Shown here: positions 7,451-24,000 of the stretch, piece by piece | Layout: the number at the start of each line of letters is the position of its first letter | How positions within the stretch are numbered: position 1 is the stretch's first letter | Source of the DNA: Alkalimonas mucilaginosa | GTDB lineage: Bacteria > Pseudomonadota > Gammaproteobacteria > Enterobacterales > Alteromonadaceae | Assembly (NCBI RefSeq): GCF_036327005.1 | Contig: NZ_JAUGZK010000004.1 | Coordinates: 324,170-348,169 of the forward strand | Reading direction: 5' to 3' | DNA: 24,000 bases | Notes under the pieces: generated by a model | What the model saw: the letters and a program-made list of their open reading frames with translations, nothing else | Told to the model about the DNA's origin: nothing | Databases searched by the model: none | Translations under genes and position numbers: made by a program

Positions 7451-7474
7451 TTGGCAATGCATACAAACATTTTC

Positions 7475-7494
7475 AGCCAGGCTTATGCCTGGCT
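7475..7494 (+). terminator. Hairpin between convergent MCP and GGDEF genes
   Basis: agccaggc-ttat-gcctggct is a perfect 8-bp stem, followed by atttgtt on the + strand. Confidence 0.5.
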
Positions 7495-7499
7495 ATTTG

Positions 7500-8708: not shown

Positions 8709-8863
8709 ACACAACCTCGAGCTGTTGACAGCATATTTTTATTCTGTGCTCAGTGTAGCAGCCTGCTGCCCCGAATTGAAACACCGCATGCATCAGAGTG
8801 CATGTTGCATAATGTTCTGTAAAATAATGCAGTACCTGAATCAATTTGAGCCAGTGAGTTGCT

Positions 8864-9121: not shown

Positions 9122-9170
9122 TAAAGCAGCTGCCGGGCATAGCCCGACAACTGCTTGGTGTGCTCAATGA

Positions 9171-9872
9171 CTAAAGGGTGGTCACCCAATCTGGCAGGTA
9201 CTCAATGGCCCACAGCTCCATCACCTTATCAAAACCGGTGAAGATCATCAGGGCTATCAGCAGCAGGGCATAACCCAGCAACAGTCGCCCAACTTTGCCG
9301 GAGGCGCGCAGGGTGTTCAGTCGGGTACCGGCGGCGTACCCCAGACCCACCAATGGCAAAGCGGTACCAAGGCCAAATGCCAGCATCACGCTAAACGACA
9401 TCATCAGGCTTTCCCCGGTTGAAGCCAGAGCGATAGCGGCACCCAGGGTAGGGCCTACGCACGGCAACCAGACCAGACCCAAAGAGCCACCGATCACAAA
9501 CTGAAAGGCTGGGCGGTCTGAGGAGTCTGCCAACTGGCCGCCAGCAGGCAACCGGCTGGTCAGGCGTGACAACAGCAGACTAAATTGCTGATTCAGCCAG
9601 CCAACCACCAGCACCAGCCCCATCAACAACATAAAGACTGCGGCAAAGGTACGCATAATATCGGGCGATAAACCGGCGCTGAGCAGCAGGTAGGTCAGCA
9701 AGGAGCCCCCCAGTGCAAAGGTAAAGGCCAAACCTGCCGCTAAAAACCAGACGCCGGTTTTGGATGCCCGCATGGCCGATGCCGTCACCGCCGGTATCAT
9801 CGGCAGAACGCAAGGTGATAACAGGCTCAGCACGCCTGCTATCAGTGCCAGTGGGATGGCGGTAAACTCCAT
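9171..9872 (-). CDS. Cytochrome c biogenesis CcdA / DsbD-beta-family transmembrane thiol-disulfide electron transporter
   Basis: 6-TM protein with 'LSPCVLPMIP' and a second conserved Cys in 'LPCVGP'. Its start lies 2 nt after the stop of the upstream thioredoxin gene. Confidence 0.85.
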   Translation of the reverse strand: MEFTAIPLALIAGVLSLLSPCVLPMIPAVTASAMRASKTGVWFLAAGLAFTFALGGSLLTYLLLSAGLSPDIMRTFAAVFMLLMGLVLVVGWLNQQFSLLLSRLTSRLPAGGQLADSSDRPAFQFVIGGSLGLVWLPCVGPTLGAAIALASTGESLMMSFSVMLAFGLGTALPLVGLGYAAGTRLNTLRASGKVGRLLLGYALLLIALMIFTGFDKVMELWAIEYLPDWVTTL

Positions 9873-9874
9873 AA

Positions 9875-10306
9875 TCAGTCAGCGCCCTGGTCGTGTTTTT
9901 TCAGTTCGGCAAAGATGGTACTTTCACGGGTTTGGGCCACACTAAACCAGAGCTGCTCTTCACCACGATACAGCGCCAAGGTCGACTGACGTGGCGCCTT
10001 GAAGTAACTGACCCAGTCTTTCTGGTTATCAAAATCTACTTGCAGCACCAGGATGTCGCTGTTGGGGTTTTGGGCAAAATAGTCATTCAATACGGTGTGC
10101 TGACGGCGACAGGTCGGGCACCAGGGGGCATACACATCGATCAAAATCAGCCGGTTTTCGGCTTGGGCATGCCGAAACGCGGTTTCGGTAAAGGCCATCT
10201 TGTGTTTGGCCAGGTACTCGCTGGACGCACTGGCAGGGGCTAGCAGCATAAATGCCGCTACAGCCAGGGCAAGGACTGAGATAACAACAGTAGTGATGAT
10301 TTTCAT
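9875..10306 (-). CDS. Periplasmic thioredoxin-family protein
   Basis: Signal peptide 'MKIITTVVISVLALAVAAFMLLAPASA'. Active site 'WCPTC'. Thioredoxin-fold length. Confidence 0.85.
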   Translation of the reverse strand: MKIITTVVISVLALAVAAFMLLAPASASSEYLAKHKMAFTETAFRHAQAENRLILIDVYAPWCPTCRRQHTVLNDYFAQNPNSDILVLQVDFDNQKDWVSYFKAPRQSTLALYRGEEQLWFSVAQTRESTIFAELKKHDQGAD

Positions 10307-10427
10307 AGTGAACCTCGTTACATGAATGGATGAAAGCCACTTCAGTGTAAAGAGGTGATAAAGGGTTCACATCAGCGAATACAACGGCGCAATCAACCAA
10401 AACACCGTATCGGAATTTTACTGCGGA

Positions 10428-11348
10428 TTAATGATGCAAGGCTCTGAACTCTCCGGGGGAGAGTGTCTCATGCTGCTTAAAAAATCGAATAAAGGCGGTG
10501 GCAGATTGATAGCCGATTTGTTCTGCTATGAGTTCCATGCTCAATTCGCTGTGGATCAACAGATAACGGCAGCGCTGCAGTCGCAGCTCATCCAGCAAGG
10601 ATTTGGCCGTCATAGCCATCACTTTATGGCAGCGCTCGGCAAAGGCGCTTTTGGACAGAAATGCCAGTGCGGCCATGTTCTCTACCGTCCAGTCAGCACC
10701 CGGCTCGTCCATGATGGCCAGTACCACCCGGCGTAGCGCCGGATCTTTTAGTGCCGCCAGCAGGCCTTGTTGCATGCTGTCGTCACTGAGCACCTGGCGC
10801 AGCAAGTGCAACACCACCACATCGCTCAAGCGACTGATAGCAGCCTGATAACCAGGCTGACGGGCTTGGGCTTCCTGCCGGATCAGCTGAATTAATGGAC
10901 TTAACCGGCCGGATTGCTGGTTGGCAGGCAGATGAATGTAGTCCGGCATCACCTGAAACAGATTGGCGGTGAGTGGTGATTCGACCGCAATGTCGTAGCA
11001 GACCAGACCACGCTCCAGGTGGTCAGGCACACAAAAGTTGGCGAAGTCGACTTCGCTGGTGTGTTCGTTGACCGGCTCGTCACTAAGCCAATGCCGGAAA
11101 CTGTGGCTGAAAAAAATGGCATCGCCGGCTTCCAATTGCACTTGCTGATGCAGTCGGCCCGGAATTGCCATCCAAACCCGGCCTTGCGTCACCACATGCA
11201 GGGCCGCTTTGCTTGATTTATTAGCCAGCATATTCCAGTGACCACAAAATCCGGACTCAAAATGCAGCTCAGAGCCAAAAGCGAGCTGCGATAACAATTG
11301 CTCAAGTGCTTCCGGTGTTTCGGTCGATGGGTCTGGTGCTTTTGTCAT
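10428..11348 (-). CDS. AraC-family transcriptional regulator with N-terminal cupin-type domain
   Basis: C-terminal double HTH ('...MENMAALAFLSKSAFAERCHKV...', '...IAEQIGYQSATAFIRFFKQHETLSPGEFR'). The N-terminal half has a cupin-like 'GDAIFFSHSFRHWL'. It is divergent from the 11440-14388 operon. Confidence 0.85.
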   Translation of the reverse strand: MTKAPDPSTETPEALEQLLSQLAFGSELHFESGFCGHWNMLANKSSKAALHVVTQGRVWMAIPGRLHQQVQLEAGDAIFFSHSFRHWLSDEPVNEHTSEVDFANFCVPDHLERGLVCYDIAVESPLTANLFQVMPDYIHLPANQQSGRLSPLIQLIRQEAQARQPGYQAAISRLSDVVVLHLLRQVLSDDSMQQGLLAALKDPALRRVVLAIMDEPGADWTVENMAALAFLSKSAFAERCHKVMAMTAKSLLDELRLQRCRYLLIHSELSMELIAEQIGYQSATAFIRFFKQHETLSPGEFRALHH

Positions 11349-11439
11349 TGTTGTCTTAGAGAAATAAAACTATGGTAGTAGTGATAGGACACAGAGCCAA
11401 GTGCTTTATTGTAAGCTACACCAACTGGATACAGAATGC

Positions 11440-11931
11440 ATGTTGATTATTAAACAAAACCTGCACCAATTGGATTTGCTGGGTATCATTCTACGGCAGG
11501 TGCAGCCTGAACATTACCGGCAGGTCAAAGACTGGCCCGGTGAGCCTTCAGTCGGTAAGCATATCCGTCATGTGCTGGACCATTATCAGCAGCTGTGGCT
11601 GGCATCCGACAGTCATCAGCTGGATTACCGGCTGCGGCTGCGCGATGAAGGCGCACAAAACGATCCGCGAAAAGCGCTGCACTGGATAGAGCGCTTGCAA
11701 ACCTGGCTGCAGTGCCTGGAAGCCGATGAGCTGGATGCCCGGCTGAGCTACCAATTTGCCGAAGGCACCACCTACACCAGCTTGCAACGCGAACTGGATT
11801 TTGTTGCCAGTCATGCGGTGCATCATCTGGCCTTGATCCATGCATTGCTGGAACCCTGGGGCTACAGCTGGCCCGCAGAAGCCGGCGTACACAGCTCGAC
11901 CCGAGAGTATCACAAACGATGTGCACCCTAA
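11440..11931 (+). CDS. DinB-family (DinB_2 / YfiT-like four-helix metal-binding) protein
   Basis: His-rich helix motifs 'GKHIRHVLDHYQQL' and 'ASHAVHHLALIHALL'. The ORF opens at GTG 11401; ATG 11440 gives a typical family N-terminus. Its 3' end overlaps the next gene by 13 nt. Confidence 0.6.
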   Translation: MLIIKQNLHQLDLLGIILRQVQPEHYRQVKDWPGEPSVGKHIRHVLDHYQQLWLASDSHQLDYRLRLRDEGAQNDPRKALHWIERLQTWLQCLEADELDARLSYQFAEGTTYTSLQRELDFVASHAVHHLALIHALLEPWGYSWPAEAGVHSSTREYHKRCAP

Positions 11932-13529
11932 GCTGGTGGTACCAGCAAGGACAGCTGCATATCCTGTTCAACCGGGATGAGCGAAAAAACCGCGCCCGGG
12001 CGCATGCACCCCAGCGTATTAGCCGGCAAGGTGTGGACGCCATCATGCCCATCGATCCAGACGGTGGTGGCAGCTGGGTGGCCGCCAACGACCAGGGCCA
12101 GGTCTTTTGCCTGCTCAACGATTATGCCGCCGCTTATCAGCCGGCACCTGGCATTCGCCGCAGTCGGGGATTGCTGCTAAAGGCACTGGCGCACAGCCTT
12201 GATTGGCAGGCGCTGGATGCTATGTTGCAGCCAGAGCAACTAGGCTGCTATGCACCTTTTCGCTTGCTGCTCTTTGTTGGGCAACAGGAGCCGCTGCTGT
12301 GGCATTGGGATGGCAGCCAGCTTCGCCAGCAGCTGGCACCAAGCTCGCCTTTATCCAGCTCCAGTGCTTTATCCGGGCTGATCCCAAGGCTCAGAGCCTG
12401 GCACTGGCAACGGGTAATGGCCCGCTCACCGTCACTGCAAACCCTGCAGCGATTGCATCGTAAAGCCGCACCTTTCGGCGCTTTTAGCGGCATCGCCATG
12501 CAGCGCAGCCTGGTGCAAACGGTCAGCATCACGCAATTGACCATTAAAGCGGGTAGCATCTGCATGCAGTATTGGGATGGACATCCGTCCATGCATCAGG
12601 CCGGTGACAGCCACAGTCTGGAGCTGCCACTGCGTAAGCAGTTGCTGGCAGAACGCTCCTTTAGCAGCCGGTTGGATGTAGAGGCTTTGTTTCGCCGTTA
12701 CAGCCCGGCGCTGGCTGACCAGCTCACCGGTTGGCAGTGGGCTTTATTGCGCTGGCTGTTGGCGGAAAAACCATTCAATCAGGGGCTGCAGCCTCTGAAT
12801 CAGCAGCCAGCCGAGCGATTTTTCGATGTGGCGCTGCAGTGCCTTCGGCTTCGCCCGGACATCATTGCCTGCCGCTGGCCTGTGAGCAGCAGTCGGCCGG
12901 TGTTTGTCTGCAATCACCCCACCGGCGGCATCGATGGTTTGCTGCTGATCAGTGTGTTGCAAAAGCGCTATCCAAATTTGCAGGTACTGGCCAACGAAGC
13001 GCTGACCGAAGTGCAGCAGCTGGCCGGGCGCATGGTGCCGATCCCGGTATTTGCTAAGCCTAAAGATGCGCTGCCATGGGTGCAGGCTGCTTTTGCCAGC
13101 GACGCACCCCTGTTGATTTTTCCGGCTGGTCGTACCGCCAGAAAGGGCGGCAAAGGTCAGTTGGACGATGGCAACTGGGCCAAATTGACGGTGACATTGG
13201 CCAGGCGGCAGCAGCGCAGCCTGACAGTGCTGCATCTGCAAAGTCAGAATTCGACTTGGTTCTATACGTTGGCCTGGCTGCGCACCAGACTGGGCATCCA
13301 GGCCAATCTGGAAATGCTGTTGCTGGTGCGGGAAATGCTAAAGCCCGCCAATCGTACACCACGACTGTATGTCGATATTCCGATGCATGCCGTTGAGCTG
13401 GACGCTCTGGCCGATACCGATCGGCAGCGTATCGCCTGGTTGAAACGCCGTTGCTATCAACTACCCACTATTTATCAGGAGGAACCCGATGCCGATGGTA
13501 AGCCCAGTTGCAGCCGCCGAGCCGGCTGA
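11919..13529 (+). CDS. Fusion protein: N-terminal NRDE/TANGO2 (DUF833)-like domain + C-terminal lysophospholipid (PlsC/OlsA/GlsA-type) acyltransferase domain
   Basis: A single uninterrupted 536-aa frame. It begins 'MCTLSWW..LHILFNRDER', which shows the Met-Cys N-terminus and the NRDE signature. The C-terminal half has 'VFVCNHPTGGIDGLLL' (acyltransferase His/Asp block) and 'LLIFPAGRTARKG' (FPEGTR-like block). Confidence 0.7.
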   Translation: MCTLSWWYQQGQLHILFNRDERKNRARAHAPQRISRQGVDAIMPIDPDGGGSWVAANDQGQVFCLLNDYAAAYQPAPGIRRSRGLLLKALAHSLDWQALDAMLQPEQLGCYAPFRLLLFVGQQEPLLWHWDGSQLRQQLAPSSPLSSSSALSGLIPRLRAWHWQRVMARSPSLQTLQRLHRKAAPFGAFSGIAMQRSLVQTVSITQLTIKAGSICMQYWDGHPSMHQAGDSHSLELPLRKQLLAERSFSSRLDVEALFRRYSPALADQLTGWQWALLRWLLAEKPFNQGLQPLNQQPAERFFDVALQCLRLRPDIIACRWPVSSSRPVFVCNHPTGGIDGLLLISVLQKRYPNLQVLANEALTEVQQLAGRMVPIPVFAKPKDALPWVQAAFASDAPLLIFPAGRTARKGGKGQLDDGNWAKLTVTLARRQQRSLTVLHLQSQNSTWFYTLAWLRTRLGIQANLEMLLLVREMLKPANRTPRLYVDIPMHAVELDALADTDRQRIAWLKRRCYQLPTIYQEEPDADGKPSCSRRAG

Positions 13530-14388
13530 GTTGATTGCACAGGAGCTGGCACAGTTAAAGCCGATTGCCAGCGTTCGCGGTTTGCTGGTATTCAGCGCTC
13601 AGGCTGCCAGCATGCCAGTGACCATGCTGGAAATTGGCCGTTTGCGCGAATTGATGTTTCGCAGTGCCGGCGCCGGCCGTAACCTAGCGCGGGATCTGGA
13701 TGCTCTGGATTATGGCGAGCATGCCTATCACCAGTTGCTGGTGTGGGATCCGGCCAGGTTGGAGTTGGTGGCCATTTACCGCTACCAGTTAGGCTGGCAA
13801 GCAGCTCAGCATGGCCATGCCTTGCTGCGTACCAGCCAGCTGTTTGATTACAGCAAGGCTTTTTGCAGCCAGGTGTTGCCCTATGGCATTGAGCTGGGCC
13901 GCTCGGTGGTCAATACCAGTGCTAAGGCCCGTACCCTGGGTTTCTTTGCGTTATGGGCCGGGCTGGGAGCCTTGGCCCGCATCCACCCGCAGCTGCAGTA
14001 CTTTTTTGGCAATGTTTCGCTCTATCAAAGCCTGGGCCAGCAAGCCATTGCCTGCATGGTGCAGTTTTGCCAGCAGCTGTATACTCCGACGCAGCCGATG
14101 ATGATGGCAAAAAACGGTCTGAATTACGCAACAGCACACACGCTGGAGTGTCGCGGCTGGGTAGAGTTGGGCCCAGACGGGCGTATCCGGCAGTTGCAGC
14201 AACTGCTCAAACCCTATGGTTGCCGTCTGCCGCCCATTTTGCAGTCGTATTTAAGTGTGGGCAACGGTATCTGGTTTGACGATGCCGCCTTGGATGAGGA
14301 TTTTGGCCTGGCCTATGAGCTTAGCATCATCGTGCCACTGACCGCAGTCAGCGGGGCTATCCGGCAGCGCTTTTTGCGCGAAGCCTAG
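13489..14388 (+). CDS. GNAT-fold N-acyltransferase of the OlsB / N-acyl amino acid synthase (Acetyltransf_5) type
   Basis: 'GRLRELMFRSAGAG...DLDALDYGEHAYHQLLVWDPARLELVAIYRY' resembles the conserved OlsB-family block. AGGAGGA (13476-13482) lies 6 nt before the ATG. It overlaps the upstream gene by 41 nt. Confidence 0.7.
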   Translation: MPMVSPVAAAEPAELIAQELAQLKPIASVRGLLVFSAQAASMPVTMLEIGRLRELMFRSAGAGRNLARDLDALDYGEHAYHQLLVWDPARLELVAIYRYQLGWQAAQHGHALLRTSQLFDYSKAFCSQVLPYGIELGRSVVNTSAKARTLGFFALWAGLGALARIHPQLQYFFGNVSLYQSLGQQAIACMVQFCQQLYTPTQPMMMAKNGLNYATAHTLECRGWVELGPDGRIRQLQQLLKPYGCRLPPILQSYLSVGNGIWFDDAALDEDFGLAYELSIIVPLTAVSGAIRQRFLREA

Positions 14389-14394
14389 CCTTTC

Positions 14395-14997
14395 TTAAGG
14401 CTTGCTGCTGCCATTCGAGCCCAGGCCGCCGCTTAACACCAGCTGCAGCGCTTCGGCTGGTTTCATCTCCAGATTGCGGGTGCAGCTGCGCGGTACGATG
14501 ATGGTGTAACCGCCGACGTTGTAGGCCATTGGGATAAACACTGCCAGTTGTTCGTCATTCATTAAAGAGGACATGCGATCGCCATCAAGGCCACCTTTTT
14601 TGGTGACGATACCAATTAGTTCTATATCTGTGCCCGGCAGTTTGACCATCACCACCGACTCATCGGCAAAGTTTTTGCCCGACATCACATCCATTAAATC
14701 CTGCAGCATGCCGTAGATTTGCTTGGTACCCGGCAGTTTGAGCAGCAGCTTGCCGGGCAACTGCCACAACCAGTCAAAACCGCGCCAGCGGGCGCTAAAG
14801 CCAATCACCACACACAGCAGCACAAAGGCGGCAATCGCCATGCCTGGCAGATACCAGCTCGGCGGTAACACCAGCTCCAGCAGCGGGGCCAGCCTGGACT
14901 CAATGGTCACCAGCAACCAGCGGATCAGCTCGATGGTAATGACAATGGGCAGAATAATGGCCAGGCCTTTAGCCAGGCTTTTAGCGATAATTTTCAT
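14395..14997 (-). CDS. DUF502-family membrane protein
   Basis: 'MKIIAKSLAKGLAIILPIVITIELIRWL', a second TM segment, then 'VVMVKLPGTD..IGIVT' and 'VFIPMAYNVGGYTIIVP' are typical of DUF502. The ORF extends to 15036, but ATG 14997 fits the family N-terminus. Confidence 0.65.
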   Translation of the reverse strand: MKIIAKSLAKGLAIILPIVITIELIRWLLVTIESRLAPLLELVLPPSWYLPGMAIAAFVLLCVVIGFSARWRGFDWLWQLPGKLLLKLPGTKQIYGMLQDLMDVMSGKNFADESVVMVKLPGTDIELIGIVTKKGGLDGDRMSSLMNDEQLAVFIPMAYNVGGYTIIVPRSCTRNLEMKPAEALQLVLSGGLGSNGSSKP

Positions 14998-15224
14998 AGG
15001 GTATTCACGGTTGAAAACGAAACTACTGAGCAGCATACCAGCTGAACAGGCGCTAAAGCGAGCAGACTAAGCTCTTTTGTACGCACATATCCCTCCTGCA
15101 CTTTATGAGCTTTAACAGGGCCTACCTACTATGTCGACATCAATTTTTGTGGCGTTGGTTTGCTACTGGTGCTATTGATATAACACGACTGCTAAAAACC
15201 ATAACAAAAACCGGAAAACTTGAA

Positions 15225-16526
15225 ATGACGTACAGGTTTACTGGCTCCCCAGTGTTGAGCTATCTGGGGACGACAAAAGAAGCGAAAAGAACTCACATAC
15301 CAAACTTTCTAGCCGAAGATGAATTAATTAAGCACCTGATTGCTTATGAGCCGATGTTTACGAGTTTACGCGGTAGTTTACGATGGGATCTCAGCAGTTG
15401 CTCAATAGTTACAGCCGATTTGGCAGTATTCAACGCTGCTATCGATGATCTGTTGTTAAGCATACTGAATCACTGTGTGTCACCGATTGTTGTGGTGACT
15501 GCACAAGCCAATGAAAACAGTTTAAAGGTTGTTTTTAAGGTTACTTCTGGAGTTCGAGCTAAAGCATTCTCGGATACTGATTTTCAACAAATCCGAAAGC
15601 TTATGCGCTCTTTAAATGCAGATGCCAGCCTAGCTGAATCTGAGGCTTTCCTGACCATTGAAATCACTTTGTCAGCTAAACAGCGCTTGGTTAATGGAGA
15701 GCACCCTGCGGAGCGGCAAATTACCCAATTTAACCTTCACGAATTGGCCAGACTTAATAATGATGCAGATAATTTTAATCCACTGGTTTTAATCGTCGAG
15801 CCTAATGATGAGCTTAGACGGTTTCTTGTAAGATTACTGCAACCAGATTACCGGGTGCTAGAAGCCATAACAGGCAAGCAAGCATTTGAGATAGCCTGCA
15901 ATGACATTCCAGATTTAATTGTTACCGATGTATTGTTGCAAGAGCTTGATGGTTTAAGCCTGCTCAAAGAATTATCAGCTCAGGAGAGTACCAGCCATAT
16001 TCCTGTAATGTTTTTATCTGGAATTAAAGCCAGTGAAGCCAAAATTGATGCATTACAGCTAGGGGCAGTTGATTATTTGACCAAACCCTTTATTGCGGCA
16101 GAATTACTGTTGAAAATTCGTAATGTGGTACAGACGCGTTACAGGGTCGTTTTGAGCAATGGCGGGAGGTTACCATTAGACCGTTTAAAAAATGCATTAC
16201 CAGAGCGTGAGTTAGAGTTTCTCACCAGACTGGAGCGCCTTGTTGCGCTTCTTTTCGCAGATCCCGAGCTGGATACAGCTTCACTGGCAACACATCTTGC
16301 AATGAGTGATCGGCAATTGCAGCGCAAGGTCAAAGCGCTGCTGCACCAAACACCGGTTGAGTATATTCGTGAGTACCGACTGCATCGGGCTAAAGAGCAT
16401 TTGTTGAAGGGGAAACCTGTTGCCTTGGTATCGGATTTAGTTGGTTTTGCATCTCCAAGCCACTTTAGTAAATGTTTCAAGTTGGCTTTTCAGCAGACAC
16501 CATCAGAGTTCGCCCAGTCGCTTTAG
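15225..16526 (+). CDS. Orphan response regulator: degenerate HATPase-like N-domain + REC + AraC-type HTH output
   Basis: The REC domain has 'LVLIVEPNDE', 'DLIVTDVLLQELDG', 'VMFLSG' and 'DYLTKPF'. The C-terminal AraC HTH has 'DRQLQRKVKALLHQTPVEYIREYRL...FASPSHFSKCFKLAFQQTPSEF'. The ORF opens at 15105, but residues 1-40 look non-protein-like, so ATG 15225 is preferred; the start is uncertain. Confidence 0.8.
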   Translation: MTYRFTGSPVLSYLGTTKEAKRTHIPNFLAEDELIKHLIAYEPMFTSLRGSLRWDLSSCSIVTADLAVFNAAIDDLLLSILNHCVSPIVVVTAQANENSLKVVFKVTSGVRAKAFSDTDFQQIRKLMRSLNADASLAESEAFLTIEITLSAKQRLVNGEHPAERQITQFNLHELARLNNDADNFNPLVLIVEPNDELRRFLVRLLQPDYRVLEAITGKQAFEIACNDIPDLIVTDVLLQELDGLSLLKELSAQESTSHIPVMFLSGIKASEAKIDALQLGAVDYLTKPFIAAELLLKIRNVVQTRYRVVLSNGGRLPLDRLKNALPERELEFLTRLERLVALLFADPELDTASLATHLAMSDRQLQRKVKALLHQTPVEYIREYRLHRAKEHLLKGKPVALVSDLVGFASPSHFSKCFKLAFQQTPSEFAQSL

Positions 16527-16552
16527 TAAGAATGATAGTTATTTAAAATGAG

Positions 16553-16582
16553 CGAACTGGAAGGGTAAAAACTTCCAGTTCG
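16553..16582. terminator. Hairpin between convergent regulator and lipoprotein genes
   Basis: cgaactggaag-ggtaaaaa-cttccagttcg is a perfect 11-bp stem. There is no strong U-tract on either side. Confidence 0.45.
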
Positions 16583-16592
16583 TACCAGAGTA

Positions 16593-18098
16593 TTAGTCAC
16601 ATGGTTGCCAACTCTGACCGTCAACACTACATTCAAATAAGCGGGTACCATCGTCTAACTCAGTTTCCCGCTCCCAGCGGCCATCCGAATATTTGTGAAT
16701 GGCGACACCATTTTGAATTTTACTTTTACGCCAATACTCTGTACTTACCCGTACTTCGCTGTCGTACTCATAACCCAATAAGTCAAAAAACTGCATAAGC
16801 TCTGTAGCTGGCAAAGTTGGCTTCTCTTTAACATTAATCCAATCAGGCAAGTCGAAGAAAACAGGTTGTGATTCTCTGAAAGAAAATTCAGCGCCAGTAG
16901 ATCCGCCATCTTCCTCATTTATACGAATGGATAATCCTCGCTCATAGGGCATTTCAAAATTATTGTTTACACATTGTTCCAGAGCCGGAAAGCTGACGGT
17001 CGGGACAATGTTTGCTAATTCATAATGAGTTTGTTCAAAGTCAAAACTGACTCGCTCAATATTACCGCAACGATAGCCACCGTCAGGGTCTCGATAGGTG
17101 TCTTGCCGAATACTCAACCAACCCTTCAGTGACTGATCATTCCATGGTTGTCCTAACTCATGAAATTTTGCAAGAACAAAATCCACTTCATCCAAATTTG
17201 GAGAGTCTACTAGTTTGACTCTCTCAATAAAATCTTCACTACCTAGAAAGATAATCTCATCGCGATACCAGCCATTGCTAACGTTAAAATATTCATCATG
17301 CTGAGTGCTACGATAAACAAACACGCGAACTTCATTTGCTGTAGGATAGGTTTTCCTTAATTCCGTTTTGTGTCGATATGCGGCTTTAAGACCTTGCATG
17401 ATATCTTGTGCGGCATGATAAGCCACTGAGTCATTATCTGCGATAAAATCAGCGTATAGCCGATCAGCGGATAGATTGTAGAATGACACAAGCCCACGAA
17501 CGGTTTCTTCGATTTCATTTTTCAGTGTTTGTACTTCTTCCACATGGTTTTTAAGGTAGTGACAGTGCTTTTCCTCTATGGTTCGTGGGTAGCTTCGCTC
17601 AATAGCTTCCCAAACCACCGTGGTTAACGGAGAAATATTTCGTGTAAGGCCGTCCCTGAAATCTGCTTCTGTAATCGGCTCAAAGGTGGGCTGTAATATG
17701 ATTTGATAAGCTTCAGTTACTTCTCCAAGATCTTCATCAAAAGCACCGACAGGCACATCGACGATCAAAGCAGAATATGCAACACACTCAGCAAAATCTT
17801 CCGGGATCTCCAAGTAGTAATCTCCGGCTTCTTCAGTAAGTTTTTGTGGTTCGTCAGGATCAGCTATTCCATTGCCATTAATATCTAAAAATACTGTACC
17901 TCCTACTATGTAACCATCTATTGCTTTTCCCGACACTGTTAAAAACCGCGCTGTCGGTGGTGTCACTCCTTGAGGAGGTGGTGTCACGCCTTGCGATGGT
18001 GGCGCTGGTTCAGAGCTGCCACCACCACCGCAAGCACTTAAAGCAACTGCAATGGCAGTGACAATTGCCAGTTTGGTAAATATTTGGTTTTTCTTCAT
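16593..18098 (-). CDS. Lipoprotein of unknown function (Pro-rich tandem linker, Ca-binding-like loop)
   Basis: Signal peptide plus lipobox 'AVALSAC' followed by GGGGS. Linker 'PPSQGVTPPPQGVTPP'. 'GKAIDGYIVGGTVFLDINGNGIADPDEP' is a DxNxNGxxD-type loop. The remaining ~400 aa or so resemble no family I recognise. Confidence 0.8.
   Translation of the reverse strand: MKKNQIFTKLAIVTAIAVALSACGGGGSSEPAPPSQGVTPPPQGVTPPTARFLTVSGKAIDGYIVGGTVFLDINGNGIADPDEPQKLTEEAGDYYLEIPEDFAECVAYSALIVDVPVGAFDEDLGEVTEAYQIILQPTFEPITEADFRDGLTRNISPLTTVVWEAIERSYPRTIEEKHCHYLKNHVEEVQTLKNEIEETVRGLVSFYNLSADRLYADFIADNDSVAYHAAQDIMQGLKAAYRHKTELRKTYPTANEVRVFVYRSTQHDEYFNVSNGWYRDEIIFLGSEDFIERVKLVDSPNLDEVDFVLAKFHELGQPWNDQSLKGWLSIRQDTYRDPDGGYRCGNIERVSFDFEQTHYELANIVPTVSFPALEQCVNNNFEMPYERGLSIRINEEDGGSTGAEFSFRESQPVFFDLPDWINVKEKPTLPATELMQFFDLLGYEYDSEVRVSTEYWRKSKIQNGVAIHKYSDGRWERETELDDGTRLFECSVDGQSWQPCD
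17956..17997 (-). repeat. Two tandem 21-nt units encoding the (P)PxQGVTP linker repeat of the lipoprotein
   Basis: ggtggtgtcactccttgagga / ggtggtgtcacgccttgcgat are adjacent, in frame, and match at 17/21 positions. Confidence 0.7.
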
Positions 18099-18261
18099 AT
18101 CACTCTCCTGATTATTAGGGATAACCCAAACTCGCCTGCAAGGACTCGTTCAGGCTTGGCAACAGGAGTAAATTACAGTGATCAACTAAACTGGTGGTGT
18201 ACGACAACGACCAGTTTGTGTAACTGACCGACAATATACCCATCGATAACTCATTCAAGCG

Positions 18262-18789
18262 ATGGTGAAATTTTTCTTATTCTTCATACATATCTTTTCT
18301 GTTGTGCTAAAACTGACAACTAGTGCTTCAACGATCATGGCTGCAGGTGTATTTGTTTTTCTTTATGGCTTCATTTTATATGGCATGTATGAATTAAGCT
18401 TCCAAGTGGTATCTTGGAAGAAACGTTTGAAAGAGAAATATCGGGGCAAGGAGCATTTTGGCTGGATAATGGTTCCGACTTTAATTGCAGGGGTTGGAGT
18501 AGGAGTGCCGCTAGTGTTTATTTCGATAATATCATTTGCTGTTTTAGTGGTACTTAATAGTTACACAGTAGGGGCTAATCGGGCAGCTGATGAAATCAAA
18601 GCTTTTGTTCAATGCGATCATCCTGAAGCAAGGTGTACCAGGATTTTCTCTGGTACTGACTTGATTGCTGAAGGTAAGATCGTAACGGTGTCAGCTAAAA
18701 GTCTAGCGGTATTTGATGGCCATAGAGTGTTAATTCTAGATCATGATAATCTTCGCGTTGAGACAGAAATACAAAAACAGCATAGGTAG
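18262..18789 (+). CDS. Hypothetical membrane protein (3-4 TM helices + approximately 75-aa C-terminal soluble domain)
   Basis: 175-aa ORF. Hydrophobic helices 'FFLFFIHIFSVVL', 'IMAAGVFVFLYGFILYGMY' and 'IMVPTLIAGVGVGVPLVFISIISFAVLVVL'. No clear SD; ATG 18337 is an alternative start. Confidence 0.55.
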   Translation: MVKFFLFFIHIFSVVLKLTTSASTIMAAGVFVFLYGFILYGMYELSFQVVSWKKRLKEKYRGKEHFGWIMVPTLIAGVGVGVPLVFISIISFAVLVVLNSYTVGANRAADEIKAFVQCDHPEARCTRIFSGTDLIAEGKIVTVSAKSLAVFDGHRVLILDHDNLRVETEIQKQHR

Positions 18790-18843
18790 CTTGTATATGA
18801 AGAGTTTTGCGGTATTTTTCCCCAACGTCACCGAGGTTAGCGT

Positions 18844-19359
18844 GTGATCTATTGGAAGTCGTTTCAACATCAGGGGAATGAATTTAGTCTTGAACATCTA
18901 CATCCCAAAATATGGCTCTATGAACAAGCTGCAACAGACACTAAGCCTGCTATACCTTATCGGATTAGGGTTATTTATAGTTTGCATTGTTTTACTGTGA
19001 TGAGGGATGAGACAAAGCCTAAGCTGGATTATTCAGACGACAGAGAAATAAGAACTTTTTGTTTCGATAGGTACGAGTGGTCGAAGCTTCTGAACGAGGT
19101 CATTGAAAACCTGGATGAAGGGCATGTATACCATACGGGGCGACAAAATTTTCTAAGAATCAGGAGCACTTCAGGCTCGGAGTATGAAGTGTTTTTTACG
19201 CTCATGAAGTCAAAAGAGAAAGGTGTCGATCTTCAGCTATACGTTCAATCTGCTTACCTGAGAACCAGAGGAAGTAGCCCAAAGGCTGGTAAGATTCGAT
19301 TTTCTGTTATTGCATACAACACGAAAGCAAATAAACCAATTAAGGTACATAAACGCTAG
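18844..19359 (+). CDS. Hypothetical cytosolic protein, family not recognised
   Basis: 171-aa ORF with a GTG start preceded by GAGG (18833-18836) at 7-nt spacing. A strong rho-independent terminator follows. No TM segment and no motif I can name. Confidence 0.6.
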   Translation: MIYWKSFQHQGNEFSLEHLHPKIWLYEQAATDTKPAIPYRIRVIYSLHCFTVMRDETKPKLDYSDDREIRTFCFDRYEWSKLLNEVIENLDEGHVYHTGRQNFLRIRSTSGSEYEVFFTLMKSKEKGVDLQLYVQSAYLRTRGSSPKAGKIRFSVIAYNTKANKPIKVHKR

Positions 19360-19364
19360 AAACT

Positions 19365-19389
19365 AAAAAAGCGCCAAAGGCGCTTTTTT
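19365..19389 (+). terminator. Rho-independent terminator of the 18262-19359 cassette
   Basis: aaaaaagcgcc-aaa-ggcgctttttt has a GC stem followed by T6. The symmetry is perfect, so it could work in both directions. Confidence 0.8.
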
Positions 19390-19653
19390 AGTTTAATCAG
19401 GGTCTTTGGGTATCACGCTCTTGGGCGGTAACCTTAATCTAATAAGGCGACATTAGCGCACTCTCTCGAGTCCTGTTTATACGCTAACAACGACAGTATA
19501 AACTATAGTTGACGGTCAACACATCGGACCAGTTTGATTTGGTGGTTATCCTAACGTTTTACAGGCTGTAGTTTGTTTAGTAGTATCTCGGTAGCACAGA
19601 GGTAGCACCGAGCTATTTTCAGGAAACCGGGTAAAACGACAAGCCTTTAAAAA

Positions 19654-19730
19654 TGGTGGCCCCAGCTGGACTCGAACCAGCGACCGATCGATTATGAGTC
19701 GAGCGCTCTAACCAACTGAGCTATAGGGCC
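19654..19730 (-). tRNA. ileX: tRNA with CAU anticodon; most likely tRNA-Ile2 (lysidine-modified, ileX-like), formally Met by anticodon
   Basis: The reverse complement is GGCCCTATAGCTCAGTTGGTTAGAGCGCTCGACTCATAATCGATCGGTCGCTGGTTCGAGTCCAGCTGGGGCCACCA (77 nt). It folds as a cloverleaf with an encoded CCA end and anticodon loop CU-CAU-AA. A G1-C72 pair and the lack of a GGG/CCC anticodon stem rule out the initiator tRNA. The C4-G69 and C5-G68 pairs and the T-arm/acceptor resemble E. coli ileX as I recall it. Its position downstream of rpoD is also as in E. coli. Confidence 0.9.
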
Positions 19731-19767
19731 ATGGTGTGGACATTCTTGCTAAGCAAAAACGGCTTGC

Positions 19768-19796
19768 AGTATAGAAAGTTTTGCTGCCGTTGTCAT
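19768..19796 (-). promoter_or_regulatory. Candidate sigma-70 promoter for the tRNA gene
   Basis: On the minus strand: ATGACA (-35, rc of 19791-19796), a 17-nt spacer, then TATACT (-10, rc of 19768-19773). It lies about 35 nt upstream of the mature tRNA 5' end. Confidence 0.45.
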
Positions 19797-19848
19797 CTGA
19801 CTTTGCTGGCTTATTGCTATCAAGCGGTTATTTTTTCTGCAAAAAGTA

Positions 19849-19871
19849 AAAGGCGCCGGGTAGGCGCCTTT
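19849..19871 (-). terminator. Rho-independent terminator downstream of rpoD
   Basis: aaaggcgcc-gggta-ggcgccttt. On the minus strand the stem is followed by TTTTACTTTTT. Confidence 0.75.
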
Positions 19872-19876
19872 GGTAT

Positions 19877-21718
19877 TTACTCGTCCAGGAAGCTTTTTAA
19901 CACTTCCGAGCGCGATGGGTGGCGCAGTTTGCGTAATGCCTTGGCTTCGATCTGCCGGATCCGCTCCCGGGTAACGTCGAACTGTTTGCCGACTTCTTCC
20001 AGGGTGTGATCGGTATTCATGTCGATACCAAACCGCATCCGCAGTACTTTGGCTTCACGGGCGGTAAGGCCGGCCAGTACTTCGTTGGTGGCGTTTTTCA
20101 GACTTTCCATCGTGGCTGAGTCCAGTGGTGATTCACCGCTGGTATCCTCGATAAAGTCGCCCAGATGCGAATCTTCATCATCGCCAATCGGGGTTTCCAT
20201 CGAAATTGGCTCTTTGGCGATTTTCAGCACCTTGCGGATTTTGTCTTCTGGCATTTGCATGCGTTCGGACAATTCTTCCGGTGTTGGCTCCCGGCCCATC
20301 TCCTGCAACATCTGCCGGGAGATCCGGTTCAGCTTGTTGATGGTTTCGATCATATGCACCGGAATACGGATGGTACGGGCTTGATCAGCAATGGAGCGGG
20401 TGATGGCCTGACGGATCCACCAGGTGGCATAGGTCGAAAACTTGTAACCACGACGGTATTCGAATTTATCGACGGCCTTCATCAGACCAATATTGCCTTC
20501 CTGGATCAGATCAAGGAATTGCAAACCACGGTTGGTGTATTTTTTCGCAATCGAAATAACCAGACGCAGGTTGGCCTCGACCATTTCCTTTTTCGCCCGG
20601 CGGGCTTTGGCTTCGCCAATGGACATCCGACGGTTGATGTCTTTAATTTTGGTAATGCTAAGGCCAGTCTCTTCCTCAACTTTCTTCAGTTTTTCAACAC
20701 AGCGATACAAATCGTCTTTGAAATCGCTCAGTTTTTCAGAGTGCGTTTTTTTGGCTGCAATTTCAGCATCGATCCAGGCCGTAGAGGTTTCATTGCCAGT
20801 GAAGGCTTTTACGAAAGCTTTCTTCGGCATTTTGGCATGTTCGACGCTGTGCTTCATCAGCAGACGTTCCTGCACCCGCACCCGGTCCATCATTTCGCGC
20901 ATGTTTTTGACCAGGCGATCGAATTGCTTCGGTACCAGGCGGAAACAGCGAAACACTTCACTCAGCTTCAGAATCTCTTCTTTGGTGGTGTCGTGCTCAC
21001 GGCCATTGCTGACAATGGAGTTACGGGTAACATCGTATTGCTGACGCAATTCACCGAATTTAATGCGGGCAACTTCCGGATCCGGACCGCTATCACCATC
21101 ATCGGCATCGTCGCTGTCGTCATCATCGTCGTCATCGTCGTCATCGTCGTTGTTGGATTCCGGCACATCTGAACCAATGTTGGTTGCAATTACCGGTGCT
21201 TCATCCAGCTCATTCGGATCGACGAATGCGGTGACGATGTCACTCAGTCGCATCTGGTCGGCTTCGAATTTATCCCACAACTCAAGCAGGTAGGTGATAG
21301 CTTCCGGATATTCCGCAACCGAGGTTTGTACCTGGTTGATGCCATCCTCGATGCGCTTGGCGATTTCAATTTCGCCATCCCGGGTTAATAGCTCGACGGT
21401 GCCCATTTCCCGCATGTACATCCGCACCGGATCAGTGGTGCGGCCGAGTTCTTTATCGACACTGACCAGCGCCTGAGCAGCTTCTTCAGCGGCATCATCA
21501 TCGGCGGCGGCATCGGCCATGATCAGATCATCGGCATCCGGGGCGGATTCAAACACCTGGATCCCCATGTCGTTGATCATGCGGATAATATCTTCGATTT
21601 GCTCCGAGTCGATAATGTCTTGTGGAAGGTGGTCATTGACTTCCGCAAAGGTGAGGTACCCTTGCTCTTTACCTTTCAAGATCAGGAGTTTGAGTTGCGA
21701 CTGAGGACTTTGCTCCAT
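19877..21718 (-). CDS. rpoD: RNA polymerase sigma-70 factor RpoD
   Basis: '[23 protein letters not shown]' is the canonical N-terminus and gives 613 aa. The region 2 block '[30 protein letters not shown]' and the region 4.2 block '[30 protein letters not shown]' are present. The ORF-track start at 21802 adds 28 implausible residues. Confidence 0.97.
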
Positions 21719-21802
21719 AGAGGCTATGCTTCCACTCAAGTTAATTAATAAACGAATTGCGAACTGGCAATTATAACAAACTGCGGCATTTCTAGCCAGC
21801 AA

Positions 21803-23551
21803 TTAGCTGGGTGCCGATCGCGGTTTTCTGCTTTTTAGTGCTGTAAGTAACAATACGTATTCCTGTTGCTCTACAGAGGTCAACTTTTGCAGTTTGGCTG
21901 TACGCTCCAGCGCCTCCAGGCGTTGTTGCAGATAAAGATCTTCTATCGCGGCAAAGGTATCCACAAATTCTGGCTCGATTTGCTCGGGTTCCAGTTGAGG
22001 ATCCCACACTGCCAGTTTATTGAGTATCGGATATTCCTGACTATTCCGCCAATGCTCTAACAGCTGAGCAGTACGAACCCCGGGGATTTCCAGGATTTTT
22101 TGTTGCAATGCCAGCAATAAATCAAAGCCCGGTAACTGGGCTCCTGCCAGCTCTTGTGCTTGCGGTATGCTGTTGGCCAACGCCGGGTATTGCAGTAATA
22201 AAGCAATGGCTCGGCGCATTGGGGTCATGCTTTGTGCTTTGGGCAGATAACGGGCGGTTATACCTTTGCCCGGAGCTGCTTTGGCCTCTTTGGGCTTGCC
22301 AATCAGGTTGTGCAGCTTATCACTGAGTTGTTCCCGGTAAAACTCACTGGGGATCTGACCGATCAGAGCTTTTCCTTCTGCCAATAGCGCTGATTTTCCA
22401 GCATCGGAACTGGCATCGTGTTGTGTCAGCAGGTACTCAAAGAAATAATGCTGCAAGCTGGCGGCTGCGGCAACACGCGCTAGAAAAGCCTCTTTGCCTT
22501 CTTGTTGTACCATGCTATCCGGATCTTCGCCATCCGGTAAAAAAACAAATTTAAGCTCCACACCATCTTTTAACTGTGGCAGAGCATTTTGCAAAGCACG
22601 CCAGGCAGCATCGCGGCCGGCACGGTCACCATCGTAGCAACAGACCACGGAGCGGCAATAGCGAAACAGCGTTTGCATGTGGTCGCTGGTCGTCGCAGTC
22701 CCCAGGCTGGCGACAGCAAAATCAATGCCTTGCTCCGACAGAGCCACCACGTCCATATAGCCTTCGACTACCAGCACCTGCTCCAGTCGTTCCTGCTGCT
22801 GACGGGCCTCAAATAAGCCATAGAGTTCACGGCCCTTATGAAACAAGCGGGTTTCCGGTGAGTTCAGATACTTGGGGGTGCCGTCATCGAATACCCTGCC
22901 ACCAAAAGCAATCACCCGGCCACGGCGATCACGAATGGGGAACATCAACCGGTTACGAAAAAAATCGTACTCGCGGCCTTGCTCATTGCGGCTGGTCAGT
23001 TTCAGCTCAACTAACTGATCGCGTACTTTCTTGTCCTTGCCCAACTGGCGCAGCACAAAATCCCAACTATCCGGTGCGACACCAATACCAAACTTCTGTA
23101 CCGTGTTGGCACTTAAACCCCGGCGCTTTAAGTAGGCTTGCGCCTGTGCACTGGCAGGACCATGCTGCAATTGCTGTTGCCATAAGCTACTGACTTTTTG
23201 CATCAGTTCGTAATCATCGGCCTGACCACTGGGGCGGGCAGGACCACCGCCTTCGCGTGGCACTTCAAGATGATGCATTGCCGCCAGTTCTTCAATGGCC
23301 TCAGGAAACTCCAGTTGCTCGTACTCCATCAAGAAGGTGATGGCGTTGCCGTGTGCTCCACAACCGAAACAGTGGTAAAACTGCTTGTCTTGGCTGACAG
23401 TAAAAGAGGGCGTTTTTTCGTTATGGAAAGGGCAGCAGGCAGAATGATTCCGGCCTTTTTTCTTCAAAGGCACACGTTGATCGATCAACTCGACAATGTC
23501 GGTTCGAGCCAGTAAATCATCAATGAACTGTCGCGGGATCTGTCCGGCCAC
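21803..23551 (-). CDS. dnaG: DNA primase DnaG
   Basis: GTG start. Zinc ribbon 'CCPFHNEKTPSFTVSQDKQFYHCFGCGAHGN'. Toprim 'VVEGYMDVVAL' and 'CYDGDRAGRDAA'. 582 aa, located between rpsU and rpoD. Confidence 0.96.
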   Translation of the reverse strand: MAGQIPRQFIDDLLARTDIVELIDQRVPLKKKGRNHSACCPFHNEKTPSFTVSQDKQFYHCFGCGAHGNAITFLMEYEQLEFPEAIEELAAMHHLEVPREGGGPARPSGQADDYELMQKVSSLWQQQLQHGPASAQAQAYLKRRGLSANTVQKFGIGVAPDSWDFVLRQLGKDKKVRDQLVELKLTSRNEQGREYDFFRNRLMFPIRDRRGRVIAFGGRVFDDGTPKYLNSPETRLFHKGRELYGLFEARQQQERLEQVLVVEGYMDVVALSEQGIDFAVASLGTATTSDHMQTLFRYCRSVVCCYDGDRAGRDAAWRALQNALPQLKDGVELKFVFLPDGEDPDSMVQQEGKEAFLARVAAAASLQHYFFEYLLTQHDASSDAGKSALLAEGKALIGQIPSEFYREQLSDKLHNLIGKPKEAKAAPGKGITARYLPKAQSMTPMRRAIALLLQYPALANSIPQAQELAGAQLPGFDLLLALQQKILEIPGVRTAQLLEHWRNSQEYPILNKLAVWDPQLEPEQIEPEFVDTFAAIEDLYLQQRLEALERTAKLQKLTSVEQQEYVLLLTALKSRKPRSAPS

Positions 23552-23571
23552 TGGATAGTTTCACTTTGCTC

Positions 23572-23603
23572 AGAAAAAGACAAACCGTGCCTGAAAGCAC
23601 GGT
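23572..23603 (-). terminator. T1-like attenuating terminator between rpsU and dnaG
   Basis: accgtgc-ctgaaa-gcacggt (23584-23603). On the minus strand the stem is followed by TTGTCTTTTTCTG, immediately upstream of the dnaG start. This is analogous to E. coli terminator T1. Confidence 0.6.
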
Positions 23604-23660
23604 GTGGTCAGCATATGCCAGTTCCCGACTCTTTGCATTCTAACAATCAAGAGTTGGGGG

Positions 23661-23721
23661 GCGTTTCATTGCAATCAAAAGCTGTTTGAAAACAGCAGCT
23701 GCCTGCCAGGCAATGAAACGC
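23661..23721 (-). promoter_or_regulatory. Long stem-loop in the rpsU-dnaG intergenic leader
   Basis: Perfect 12-bp stem gcgtttcattgc / gcaatgaaacgc (23661-23672 with 23710-23721). It encloses a nested hairpin gctgtt-tgaaa-acagc (23681-23695). Confidence 0.5.
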
Positions 23722-23750
23722 AGCCGTCGCTGTGACGTCTTTAGTACAAA

Positions 23751-23966
23751 TTAGTACAGACGGATACGACGTGCATTTTCGCGAGAAAGCTTCTTAGCGT
23801 GGCGTTTTACCGCAGCTGCTTTCTTACGCTTACGAATCCAGGTTGGCTTTTCGTAGAATTCTTTTGCACGCACGTCAGCCAGGATGCCAGCCTTTTCACA
23901 AGAGCGCTTGAAACGACGCAAAGCTACGTCAAAGGGTTCGTTTTCTTTTACTTTAACAACAGGCAT
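23751..23966 (-). CDS. rpsU: 30S ribosomal protein S21
   Basis: 71 aa, '[42 protein letters not shown]...[10 protein letters not shown]', near-identical to enterobacterial S21. GAGGTGA SD lies upstream. Confidence 0.97.
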
Positions 23967-24000
23967 TAAATTCTCACCTCGGTTTATCTGGTCAGTCAGC

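Follow-up and report, generated by a model that had tools for sequence, protein, structure and literature searches.

Genomic islands linked to tRNA genes lie at the tRNA 3' end, are foreign in composition, are absent from close relatives, and carry a P4-type tyrosine integrase, flanking direct repeats and mobility genes. SraL (RyjA) is an enterobacterial, RpoS-dependent, Hfq-binding small RNA (sRNA) which represses tig, and in 2013 was found among enteric bacteria only (PMC3753932). The ryjA gene is convergent with soxR, with which it shares the 3' end. A different sRNA, SroH, is encoded in Escherichia coli K-12 on the opposite strand, 1-2 nt after the stop codon of yjaZ (htrC). Hybrid two-component sensor-kinases (HTCS) feature, in one polypeptide, a sensor, HisKA, HATPase_c, a receiver (REC) and an AraC-type helix-turn-helix (HTH). 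Pieces akin to all of these lie side by side in a 24,000-nt stretch of the Alkalimonas mucilaginosa genome (assembly GCF_036327005.1, contig NZ_JAUGZK010000004.1, positions 324,170 to 348,169; this whole stretch is called the window, and coordinates refer to it). They form a 4.6-kb islet, which abuts the 3' end of a tRNA-Ile(CAU) gene orthologous to ileX. The islet is a degraded tRNA-linked genomic islet of a known kind, the outcome of routine decay at a tRNA integration hotspot. Very probably it is what is left, decayed and immobilised, of one or more mobile elements which entered at the 3' end of an ileX-type tRNA-Ile(CAU). Its tRNA-proximal end features a yjaZ-family gene and a convergent SraL-like sRNA gene.

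The islet differs in composition from the DNA on both sides. The G+C content is 0.422 within 15043-19653, 0.544 in the left and 0.507 in the right flank; all nine 500-nt intervals inside the islet (0.398-0.460) fall under the lowest (0.468) of the 37 intervals outside (Mann-Whitney p = 2e-6). The G+C content at third codon positions (GC3) varies from 0.34 to 0.41 in the four islet open reading frames (ORFs), and from 0.53 to 0.69 in 16 flanking genes. An index similar to the codon adaptation index, with flank genes as reference, is 0.49-0.57 for the former and 0.61-0.76 for the latter. The sharp shift in composition noticed in the initial annotation is confirmed by both windowed G+C and codon usage, and the deviation is large.

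The slot between the DUF502 gene and the tRNA was compared in other Alkalimonas species. The islet is absent in all four, i.e. A. delamerensis (L001), A. cellulosilytica (L002), a metagenome-assembled genome (MAG) of the genus (L003), and A. collagenimarina (L004), the most distant. None of them has the same genes at the same place with the same composition, and the alignment to related genomes proposed in the initial annotation reveals an indel with exact breakpoints in the comparison with A. delamerensis. In the latter, blastn homology to the window stops at 15042 and resumes at 19651, and the DUF502-tRNA gap is ~90 bp. As the tRNA is encoded on the minus strand, its 3' end is at 19654, and the borders first proposed, 15040 and 19653, are thus correct to within 3 nt, the right one falling at the tRNA 3' terminus as predicted. 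In A. cellulosilytica, the MAG and A. collagenimarina the slot measures 0.93-0.99 kb, and hosts a gene encoding an SBP_bac_3-like periplasmic binding protein (the SBP_bac_3 domain was detected in the A. cellulosilytica gene). This gene is likely the ancestral occupant of the slot, because it is common to three species, A. collagenimarina included. Since it is gone from the window slot, and no remnant of it was detected in the islet by tblastn, the islet appears to be a replacement, not a pure insertion. In other genera the tRNA and the DUF502 gene are 1.3-8.8 kb apart, and the DNA in between is unrelated. The size of the slot ranges from 0.09 to 8.8 kb across sampled genera and species, and is variable in every genus sampled. 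As both distance and contents vary among genera, the slot qualifies as a general hotspot.

The tRNA gene is found downstream of rpoD, in the same orientation. It is identical to E. coli ileX at 67 of 77 window positions (~87%, counted on the alignment), and differences are mostly located at paired stem positions. The linkage of rpoD and ileX, which the initial annotation had given as conserved in enterobacteria, is correct for the E. coli K-12 record, in which mug is interposed between the two genes. The notion that tRNA 3' ends are integration sites is borne out at this same gene. In A. cellulosilytica and Arsukibacterium ikkense (L017) a 52-nt copy of the tRNA 3' end, 100% identical, lies beside a P4-type tyrosine integrase featuring Arm-DNA-bind_3 and Phage_integrase domains, with the remaining island beyond. 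The ileX-type tRNA is a proven, live integration site in relatives.

The islet had been described as integrase-less cargo, horizontally acquired, which has lost or never had its integrase. Composition, the indel and donor affinities support this description: the nearest relatives of the islet genes reside in low-GC marine Alteromonadales and in mobile elements. No integrase domain was found in any islet ORF by domain search, and tblastn of the A. cellulosilytica and A. ikkense integrases against the islet gave no match at E<1, so that neither an integrase nor a remnant of one was detected. A direct repeat of the tRNA 3' end at the left border, which the initial annotation had not found either, was sought by three methods. 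Pattern search with the first 25 nt of the tRNA 3' end, allowing up to 3 mismatches, detected no copy, repeat finding in the window gave nothing relevant to an attachment (att) site, and no local alignment of a 55-nt att-type segment rose above shuffled controls. A degenerate att repeat, either at the left border or within the islet, was rejected on these grounds. Compared with tRNA-linked islands carrying P4-type integrases, the islet is alike in tRNA 3' position, deviant composition and absence from close relatives; it differs in having no integrase, flanking direct repeats or mobility gene, and in being 4.6 kb of mostly fragmentary cargo which has replaced a resident gene. As no att repeat or integrase fragment is left, it is the relatives, rather than the islet itself, that point to site-specific integration in this lineage.

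The tRNA-proximal 0.8 kb, made up of yjaZ, the SraL-like sRNA gene and a 165-nt arm, is also found elsewhere. The segment 18834-19617 has 83.7% nucleotide identity to L050, an otherwise unrelated metagenomic contig, and the segment 18844-19701 has 75% nucleotide identity to the metagenomic contigs L048 and L049. In the latter two, homology extends over ~290 nt of noncoding sequence and reaches into a tRNA(CAU) at its 3' end; this tRNA belongs to another organism, because its sequence differs from that of the window tRNA. L048 and L049 end within the tRNA, L050 36 nt before it. Leftward from the yjaZ ribosome-binding site the cargo diverges among the three contigs and the window. Given the homology to the three contigs, continuing in two of them into the tRNA(CAU) of another organism, the 0.8-kb module is the conserved end of a family of ileX-associated elements.

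The arm, located between the sRNA promoter and the tRNA 3' end, features a tandem, GGTAGCAC-N3-GGTAGCAC (19590-19597 and 19601-19608, 11 bp apart), which is invariant in L048, L049 and L050. In the window, the octamer is found nowhere but in this tandem, which is a candidate recombinase arm site or operator; the region may also be the start of an outward transcript. The tandem sits in a short inverted repeat (CTCGGT...ACCGAG), and a promoter-like sequence, TTTACA-17-TAGTAT, is found just upstream on the plus strand (19558-19586).

The yjaZ product matches the NCBIfam YjaZ profile (NF007263) with an E of 1.2e-14 over residues 4-166 (profile positions 8-174 of 179); the score, 54.7 bits vs. an equivalog cut-off of 324, qualifies it as a family member, not as an equivalog. 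Identity to E. coli YjaZ amounts to 31% along the full length (BLASTP, E 4e-17), and the PF27200 YjaZ label is precomputed. The AF2 model of the protein has a pLDDT of 91.4. Its fold found no PDB or viral-model match at E<=0.001. A search of the literature on the function of YjaZ and SroH returned nothing functional.

The sRNA gene matches the full-length Rfam SraL model (RF01408) with an E of 4.7e-7 and a score of 37.9 bits, just under the gathering score (39). It is convergent with yjaZ, and the two genes have a common bidirectional terminator, a perfect 16-bp hairpin (19360-19394). A predicted -10 box, TATACT, was read by eye from the alignment with the three contigs; it occupies 19495-19500 of the minus strand and precedes the predicted 5' end by 6 nt, and no canonically spaced -35 box was seen. 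RF01408 also matches directly after yjaZ in seven other loci, at 29-35 bits, a Tn7-like transposon among them. A covariance model, R1, was built from ten mobile-element copies of the sRNA, and recovers the sRNA from eight distant yjaZ loci which had not contributed to it (56-62 bits, E ~1e-9). In these loci, which have a G+C content of 52-62% and encode YjaZ proteins 36-43% identical, the sRNA is immediately 3' of yjaZ, on the opposite strand. R1 also matches E. coli ryjA over the full length, at 25.3 bits (E 0.006-0.011). In the enlarged alignment, 19 of the 31 pairs feature compensatory double changes, and 97.3% of cells are paired. None of 500 shuffles reached the observed score, and slid controls were also far exceeded, in an alignment which was model-fitted and so favours structure. 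The metagenome scan was made with a 14-sequence alignment. In every recovered yjaZ locus with 3' DNA (>15 loci, 28-62% G+C) yjaZ and a convergent SraL-family sRNA are found together; the count refers to the window pair (18844-19488) and to loci L048-L064 and L070. With its intact ORF, conserved -10 box and terminator, and covarying RNA structure, the yjaZ/sRNA cassette can, as judged from these features, still work. Pairing of the sRNA with the yjaZ translation-initiation region was considered and gave no signal (RNAduplex energies did not surpass those of shuffles, z -0.7 to +1.5 in seven loci), a weak negative obtained by a crude method.

The window sRNA resembles SraL in matching the whole RF01408 model, with the same stems and a near-identical terminator, and in being convergent with yjaZ as ryjA is with soxR. 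It differs from SraL because it resides in a non-enteric host and on mobile elements, and is linked to yjaZ and not to soxR. The pair resembles E. coli yjaZ-sroH, in which the protein is homologous and the sRNA is similarly placed on the opposite strand. Yet the E. coli locus lies between rpoC and thiH and not at a tRNA, and SroH matches neither Rfam sraL nor R1 (the latter at E<=1). SroH may be a diverged or a replaced partner of yjaZ. In the E. coli K-12 genome yjaZ-sroH spans 4189786-4190487 (L066), and ryjA, which overlaps the 3' end of soxR, lies at 4277469-4278066 (L067). In a phage contig with terminase and portal genes (L068, 4850-4985) the sRNA core was found with neither a yjaZ gene nor the terminator hairpin.

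In many bacteria, the pair is carried by islands, phages and transposons. In L048 (1-9886), yjaZ is immediately preceded by an ORF matching PHROG integrase families (E 1e-5), a divergent tyrosine recombinase, and the element also carries a type I restriction-modification (R-M) system and HigB. L050 (2-2893) encodes a reverse transcriptase (RT) and a 596-aa SIR2_2 protein, in a retron- or DRT-like arrangement. In L051 (1802-15704), yjaZ is the first cargo gene of a Tn7-like element featuring TnsA/B/C/D and a 2099-aa NACHT-like protein. In a P2-like prophage contig, yjaZ and the sRNA lie beside tail genes, at the end of both prophage and contig. In L057 the pair is preceded by a replication-type gene (HTH_36/DnaD_N), a neighbour which suggests a plasmid or integrative and conjugative element (ICE) context. 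About 1.2 kb from the same pair, L057 7726-7800 matches PtaRNA1, a plasmid-transferred antisense RNA acting as antitoxin, at 41.5 bits, under the gathering score of 47.

The initial annotation had hinted at defence or immunity cargo, and this was not borne out in the window copy. PADLOC 2.0 gave three weak matches to the regulator ORF (E 8e-4 to 7e-3), none of them significant, and none to the other three islet proteins; no consistent match was obtained for 27 YjaZ family members. Such cargo is found in sister elements which have the end module in common, i.e. type I R-M, HigB, RT plus SIR2 and the giant NACHT-like protein. A two-gene defence system made up by YjaZ and a variable upstream effector was considered and rejected, the upstream neighbours being heterogeneous across 14 loci: acyl-CoA dehydrogenase, SIR2_2, HTH_36/DnaD_N protein, PrtN, recombinase-like ORF, TnsD and REC protein. 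A neighbour of 595-596 aa recurs, but is a SIR2_2 protein in one locus and an acyl-CoA dehydrogenase in others. By its gene content, the islet as a whole does not appear to be a system, and no defence function is seen.

To the left of the end module, most genes are incomplete. In the first ORF (regulator ORF), Pfam domains are confined to the C-terminal half, which features a receiver (Response_reg, 2.5e-22, residues 228-338) and an AraC-type HTH (HTH_18, 8e-23, residues 394-471). The best PDB match is annotated as hybrid two-component system protein (4.3e-38), and residues 228-469 have 46% identity to the C-terminal end of an HTCS of 1310 aa from Cognaticolwellia; identity to the REC-AraC ORF of locus L043 is also 46% (tblastn). 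In alignments with intact HTCS relatives, similarity starts at the last HATPase_c strand, the G2 box, the kinase core and the sensor being gone. No HisKA or HATPase_c Pfam signal was obtained for the ORF even at E<=10. Thus, of the full HTCS architecture only REC and HTH are found; the likeness to HTCS proteins is in these two domains, the difference in the missing sensor, HisKA and nearly all of HATPase_c, as in the altered acidic pocket of the receiver, where VLIVEPND replaces VLIVEDND (D-to-P). Because the kinase is gone and the acidic pocket mutated, the fragment would be at best a phosphorylation-independent orphan regulator. The 5' part of the ORF is of a different nature. The first 226 residues of the ORF have no homologues at E<=0.01 among 5.8 billion proteins, and the orphan part has no Pfam signal even at E<=10 and a weak coding signature (GC1 0.47). 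It is probably not ancestral to the regulator, and may be decayed or foreign sequence joined in frame.

The adjacent lipoprotein gene has 105 homologues, the best 64% identical, those of Colwellia and Psychrosphaera 47-54%. The family, whose function is unknown, is found in Colwellia, Psychrosphaera, Pseudoalteromonas, Shewanella, Vibrio and others. The AF2 model has a pLDDT of 88.9; no PDB or viral-model match to the fold was found at E<=0.001, and the weak matches obtained in the fold searches for YjaZ and the lipoprotein (ART-PolyVal-like, beta-barrel) were not credible. Being full length and endowed with a lipobox, the lipoprotein is probably still functional. In the closest contexts (L043, L044/L045) the lipoprotein gene lies a few genes downstream of an HTCS or REC-AraC gene, in the same orientation, in DNA of 35-37% G+C. 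Because the two families co-occur, and are co-oriented, in these contexts, the regulator fragment and the lipoprotein gene of the islet are two leftovers of one Colwellia-type donor locus. Only the two end genes of the cluster are retained in the window, with an inverted orientation of the lipoprotein gene with respect to the regulator fragment; no remnant of the middle genes was found in the islet by tblastn. The order of genes in the Colwellia-type cluster (L043, 196-5451; L044, 1129-9533) is HTCS with a Reg_prop/Y_Y_Y sensor, Zn-ribbon peptide, 429/611-aa protein (Sel1/TPR), 152-aa protein, lipoprotein. A RAGATH-35 Rfam match inside the lipoprotein coding region (16834-16918, minus strand; 31.9 bits vs. 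a gathering score of 38.9, E 0.0017) is probably due to chance.

The small membrane protein encoded between the lipoprotein gene and yjaZ belongs to a rare family of proteins of 207-247 aa, 25 matches being found among 1.8 billion representatives. Query residues 1-171 align to homologue residues 57-227, with an abrupt start; the first ~56 codons, including the first helix with its YLCGYLYHAGYL motif, are missing. Since homology starts at residue ~57 and no upstream remnant of the missing part was detected by tblastn, the gene underwent a clean 5' truncation, and is probably dead.

The islet is therefore a patchwork, made up by the 3' part of a regulator gene joined to orphan sequence, an intact lipoprotein gene, a truncated membrane-protein gene and an intact 0.8-kb end module (Table 1). 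Since most of the cargo consists of gene fragments, it reads as a fossil rather than a working island. The initial annotation described the four genes as orphans or unknowns throughout, which is no more than approximately correct. Functions are mostly unknown, but domains or families could be assigned to all four: ORF 1 features a receiver and an AraC-type HTH, ORF 2 belongs to a conserved lipoprotein family with ~100 homologues, ORF 3 to the rare family above, ORF 4 to the YjaZ family, which is named though of unknown function. A fifth gene, the sRNA, had been overlooked.

Table 1. Features of the islet and of its borders (coordinates of the window)
Feature	Coordinates	Strand	Evidence and remarks
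Islet, whole	15043-19653		G+C content, blastn breakpoints 15042 and 19651, slot sequences of relatives
Left junction	14998-15042		~45 bp upstream of the DUF502 start codon; base-level junction comparison
Orphan 5' part of ORF 1, residues 1 to ~179	15105-15641	+	Protein search, Pfam, codon statistics
3' portion of HTCS gene	15642-16526	+	Pfam, PDB match, alignments; whole ORF 15105-16526
Lipoprotein gene, 501 aa	16593-18098	-	Lipobox LSAC, invariant Cys23; homologue search, contexts
Small membrane-protein gene, 5'-truncated	18262-18789	+	Representative search, sequences, tblastn
yjaZ-family gene, 171 aa, intact	18844-19359	+	GTG start, GAGG 7 nt upstream; NCBIfam, PF27200, BLASTP
SraL (RyjA)-like sRNA	19362-19488	-	Rfam RF01408, custom covariance model R1, covariation
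Conserved arm between sRNA promoter and tRNA 3' end	19489-19653		165 nt; alignment with L048/L049/L050, invariant blocks
tRNA-Ile(CAU), ileX orthologue	19654-19730	-	ARAGORN (calls it Met-CAT); Rfam tRNA, 70.3 bits; E. coli ileX alignment

The sequence of events leading to the islet may be outlined as follows. An ileX-targeting integrative element, or successive elements, would have integrated by site-specific recombination at the tRNA 3' end. The integrase, the distal att repeat and the solute-binding-protein gene resident in the slot would later have been lost through deletions and rearrangements; the same decay would have truncated the small membrane-protein gene and the hybrid sensor-kinase gene, and the lipoprotein gene would have been inverted relative to its regulator. 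The outcome would be an immobile 4.6-kb patchwork, the intact parts of which are the yjaZ/sRNA cassette and the lipoprotein gene. Several observations weigh against this scheme. Neither an att repeat nor an integrase fragment is found in the islet. The integrase is at the tRNA-distal island end in A. cellulosilytica and A. ikkense, the recombinase-like gene of L048 is tRNA-proximal; more than one element family thus uses the ileX site and may be the parent of the window remnant. Relatives were found by scanning species-representative genomes with the neighbouring DUF502 protein, one genome per species. A. delamerensis has the 45 bp of the left junction but no islet, which fits either gain here or loss there. 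Finally, the nearest relatives of the left and right flanks differ. The left flank (11431-15042) is 95.3% identical to A. delamerensis and 78.8% to the MAG, and DUF502 is 98.4% identical to that of A. cellulosilytica; the right flank (19647-24000) is 94.6% identical to the MAG and 84.9% to A. delamerensis. Such discordance points to homologous recombination, the hotspot being its boundary, and the islet could have come in already decayed from another Alkalimonas by this route. Import as a block, already integrase-less, between conserved flanks, with the tRNA border inherited, is in keeping with the discordance of the flanks and with the variability of the slot in every sampled genus, and is possible, if rather unlikely. 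No islet-carrying Alkalimonas donor is found among species representatives, and the import would merely shift integration to another lineage, as composition, donor affinities and the end module abutting ileX still require an original site-specific insertion.

Integration at ileX followed by decay is also to be preferred to three other explanations. The region might be ancestral to the genus and have been independently lost elsewhere, its low G+C content reflecting local mutational bias or function. The comparison with only four other species, and the left-junction sequence of A. delamerensis, leave some room for this. Nevertheless, a slot occupied by the SBP_bac_3-like gene is the parsimonious ancestral state, the best homologues come from mobile elements and from Colwellia-type genomes with a G+C content of 35-37%, and the GC3 of the islet is 0.2-0.3 under that of flanking genes, all of which makes an ancestral origin highly improbable. 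The four genes might instead be a working unit, e.g. a niche-adaptation or anti-phage module in which the response regulator controls the lipoprotein, the membrane protein and YjaZ. All ORFs are open, regulator and lipoprotein families co-occur in other genomes, and sister elements carry defence genes next to the same end module. A unit of this sort is improbable for a regulator devoid of kinase and sensor and altered in its acidic pocket, an inverted lipoprotein gene, a membrane-protein gene missing its start and a donor cluster deprived of its middle genes; the weakness of the PADLOC matches and the heterogeneity of yjaZ upstream neighbours also speak against it. Contigs of related elements often break at this point, as L048, L049 and L050 do, which marks it as prone to repeats, and foreign low-GC DNA might have been joined to an Alkalimonas contig at the repeated tRNA sequence by the assembly. 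But both junctions are found in one window, with Alkalimonas sequence on either side, the left junction coincides with no repeat and its 45 bp recur in A. delamerensis, and independent assemblies show the arm joined to the tRNA in the same way. An artefact is thus barely credible.

Further variation was observed in the DNA flanking the islet. Blastn homology ends on the left at 15002 in A. cellulosilytica and the MAG, at 14997 in A. collagenimarina, and at 15042 in A. delamerensis, the left-junction ~45 bp being common to the window and A. delamerensis only, and missing in the three species with the SBP gene. Junction sequence (15001-15036) lengthens the DUF502 ORF by 13 codons (MLLSSFVFNREYP). 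As relatives start at the methionine of MKIIAKSL, this N-terminal extension is probably spurious, an artefact of the junction. A. cellulosilytica lacks a 5.3-kb block (9129-14395), and its DUF502 gene directly follows the region homologous to window 2-9128. The block, a second indel adjoining the hotspot, carries genes of the aminolipid-synthesis type, encoding a TANGO2/acyltransferase fusion and a GlsB/OlsF-like N-acyltransferase. In A. delamerensis, ~1.8 kb of ordinary genes separate rpoD from the tRNA (L001, 8030-9826), vs. ~50 bp in the window, and a further 1.7 kb (L001, 13600-15314) is found at the position of window 11353/11431. These extra segments of ~1.7 kb were considered as copies of an insertion sequence (IS), and this was rejected, as they are mutually unrelated and contain ordinary genes.

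The islet is useful mainly as a well-dissected case, in which the breakpoints are exact, a resident gene has been displaced and four fragments can be recognised. The linkage of yjaZ and the sRNA matters more than the island, because it gives a testable handle on sroH and yjaZ, both poorly understood in E. coli; yjaZ (YjaZ/HtrC) is a y-ome gene. As a tentative proposal, yjaZ and the SraL-family sRNA might be an ancient, co-selected protein-plus-sRNA cassette. In Gammaproteobacteria and beyond, it would travel on prophages, Tn7-like transposons and tRNA islands, at the end proximal to the attachment site, and the 'core' SraL and E. coli yjaZ-sroH would be its domesticated descendants. The cassette would act on the host and benefit the element. 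If this holds true, the sRNA and YjaZ might act on the host together, for example with the sRNA controlling chaperone or termination factors, and the element might benefit via superinfection exclusion, stationary-phase fitness or anti-defence. The data suggest that SraL, so far an enterobacterial core sRNA, has mobile-element relatives.

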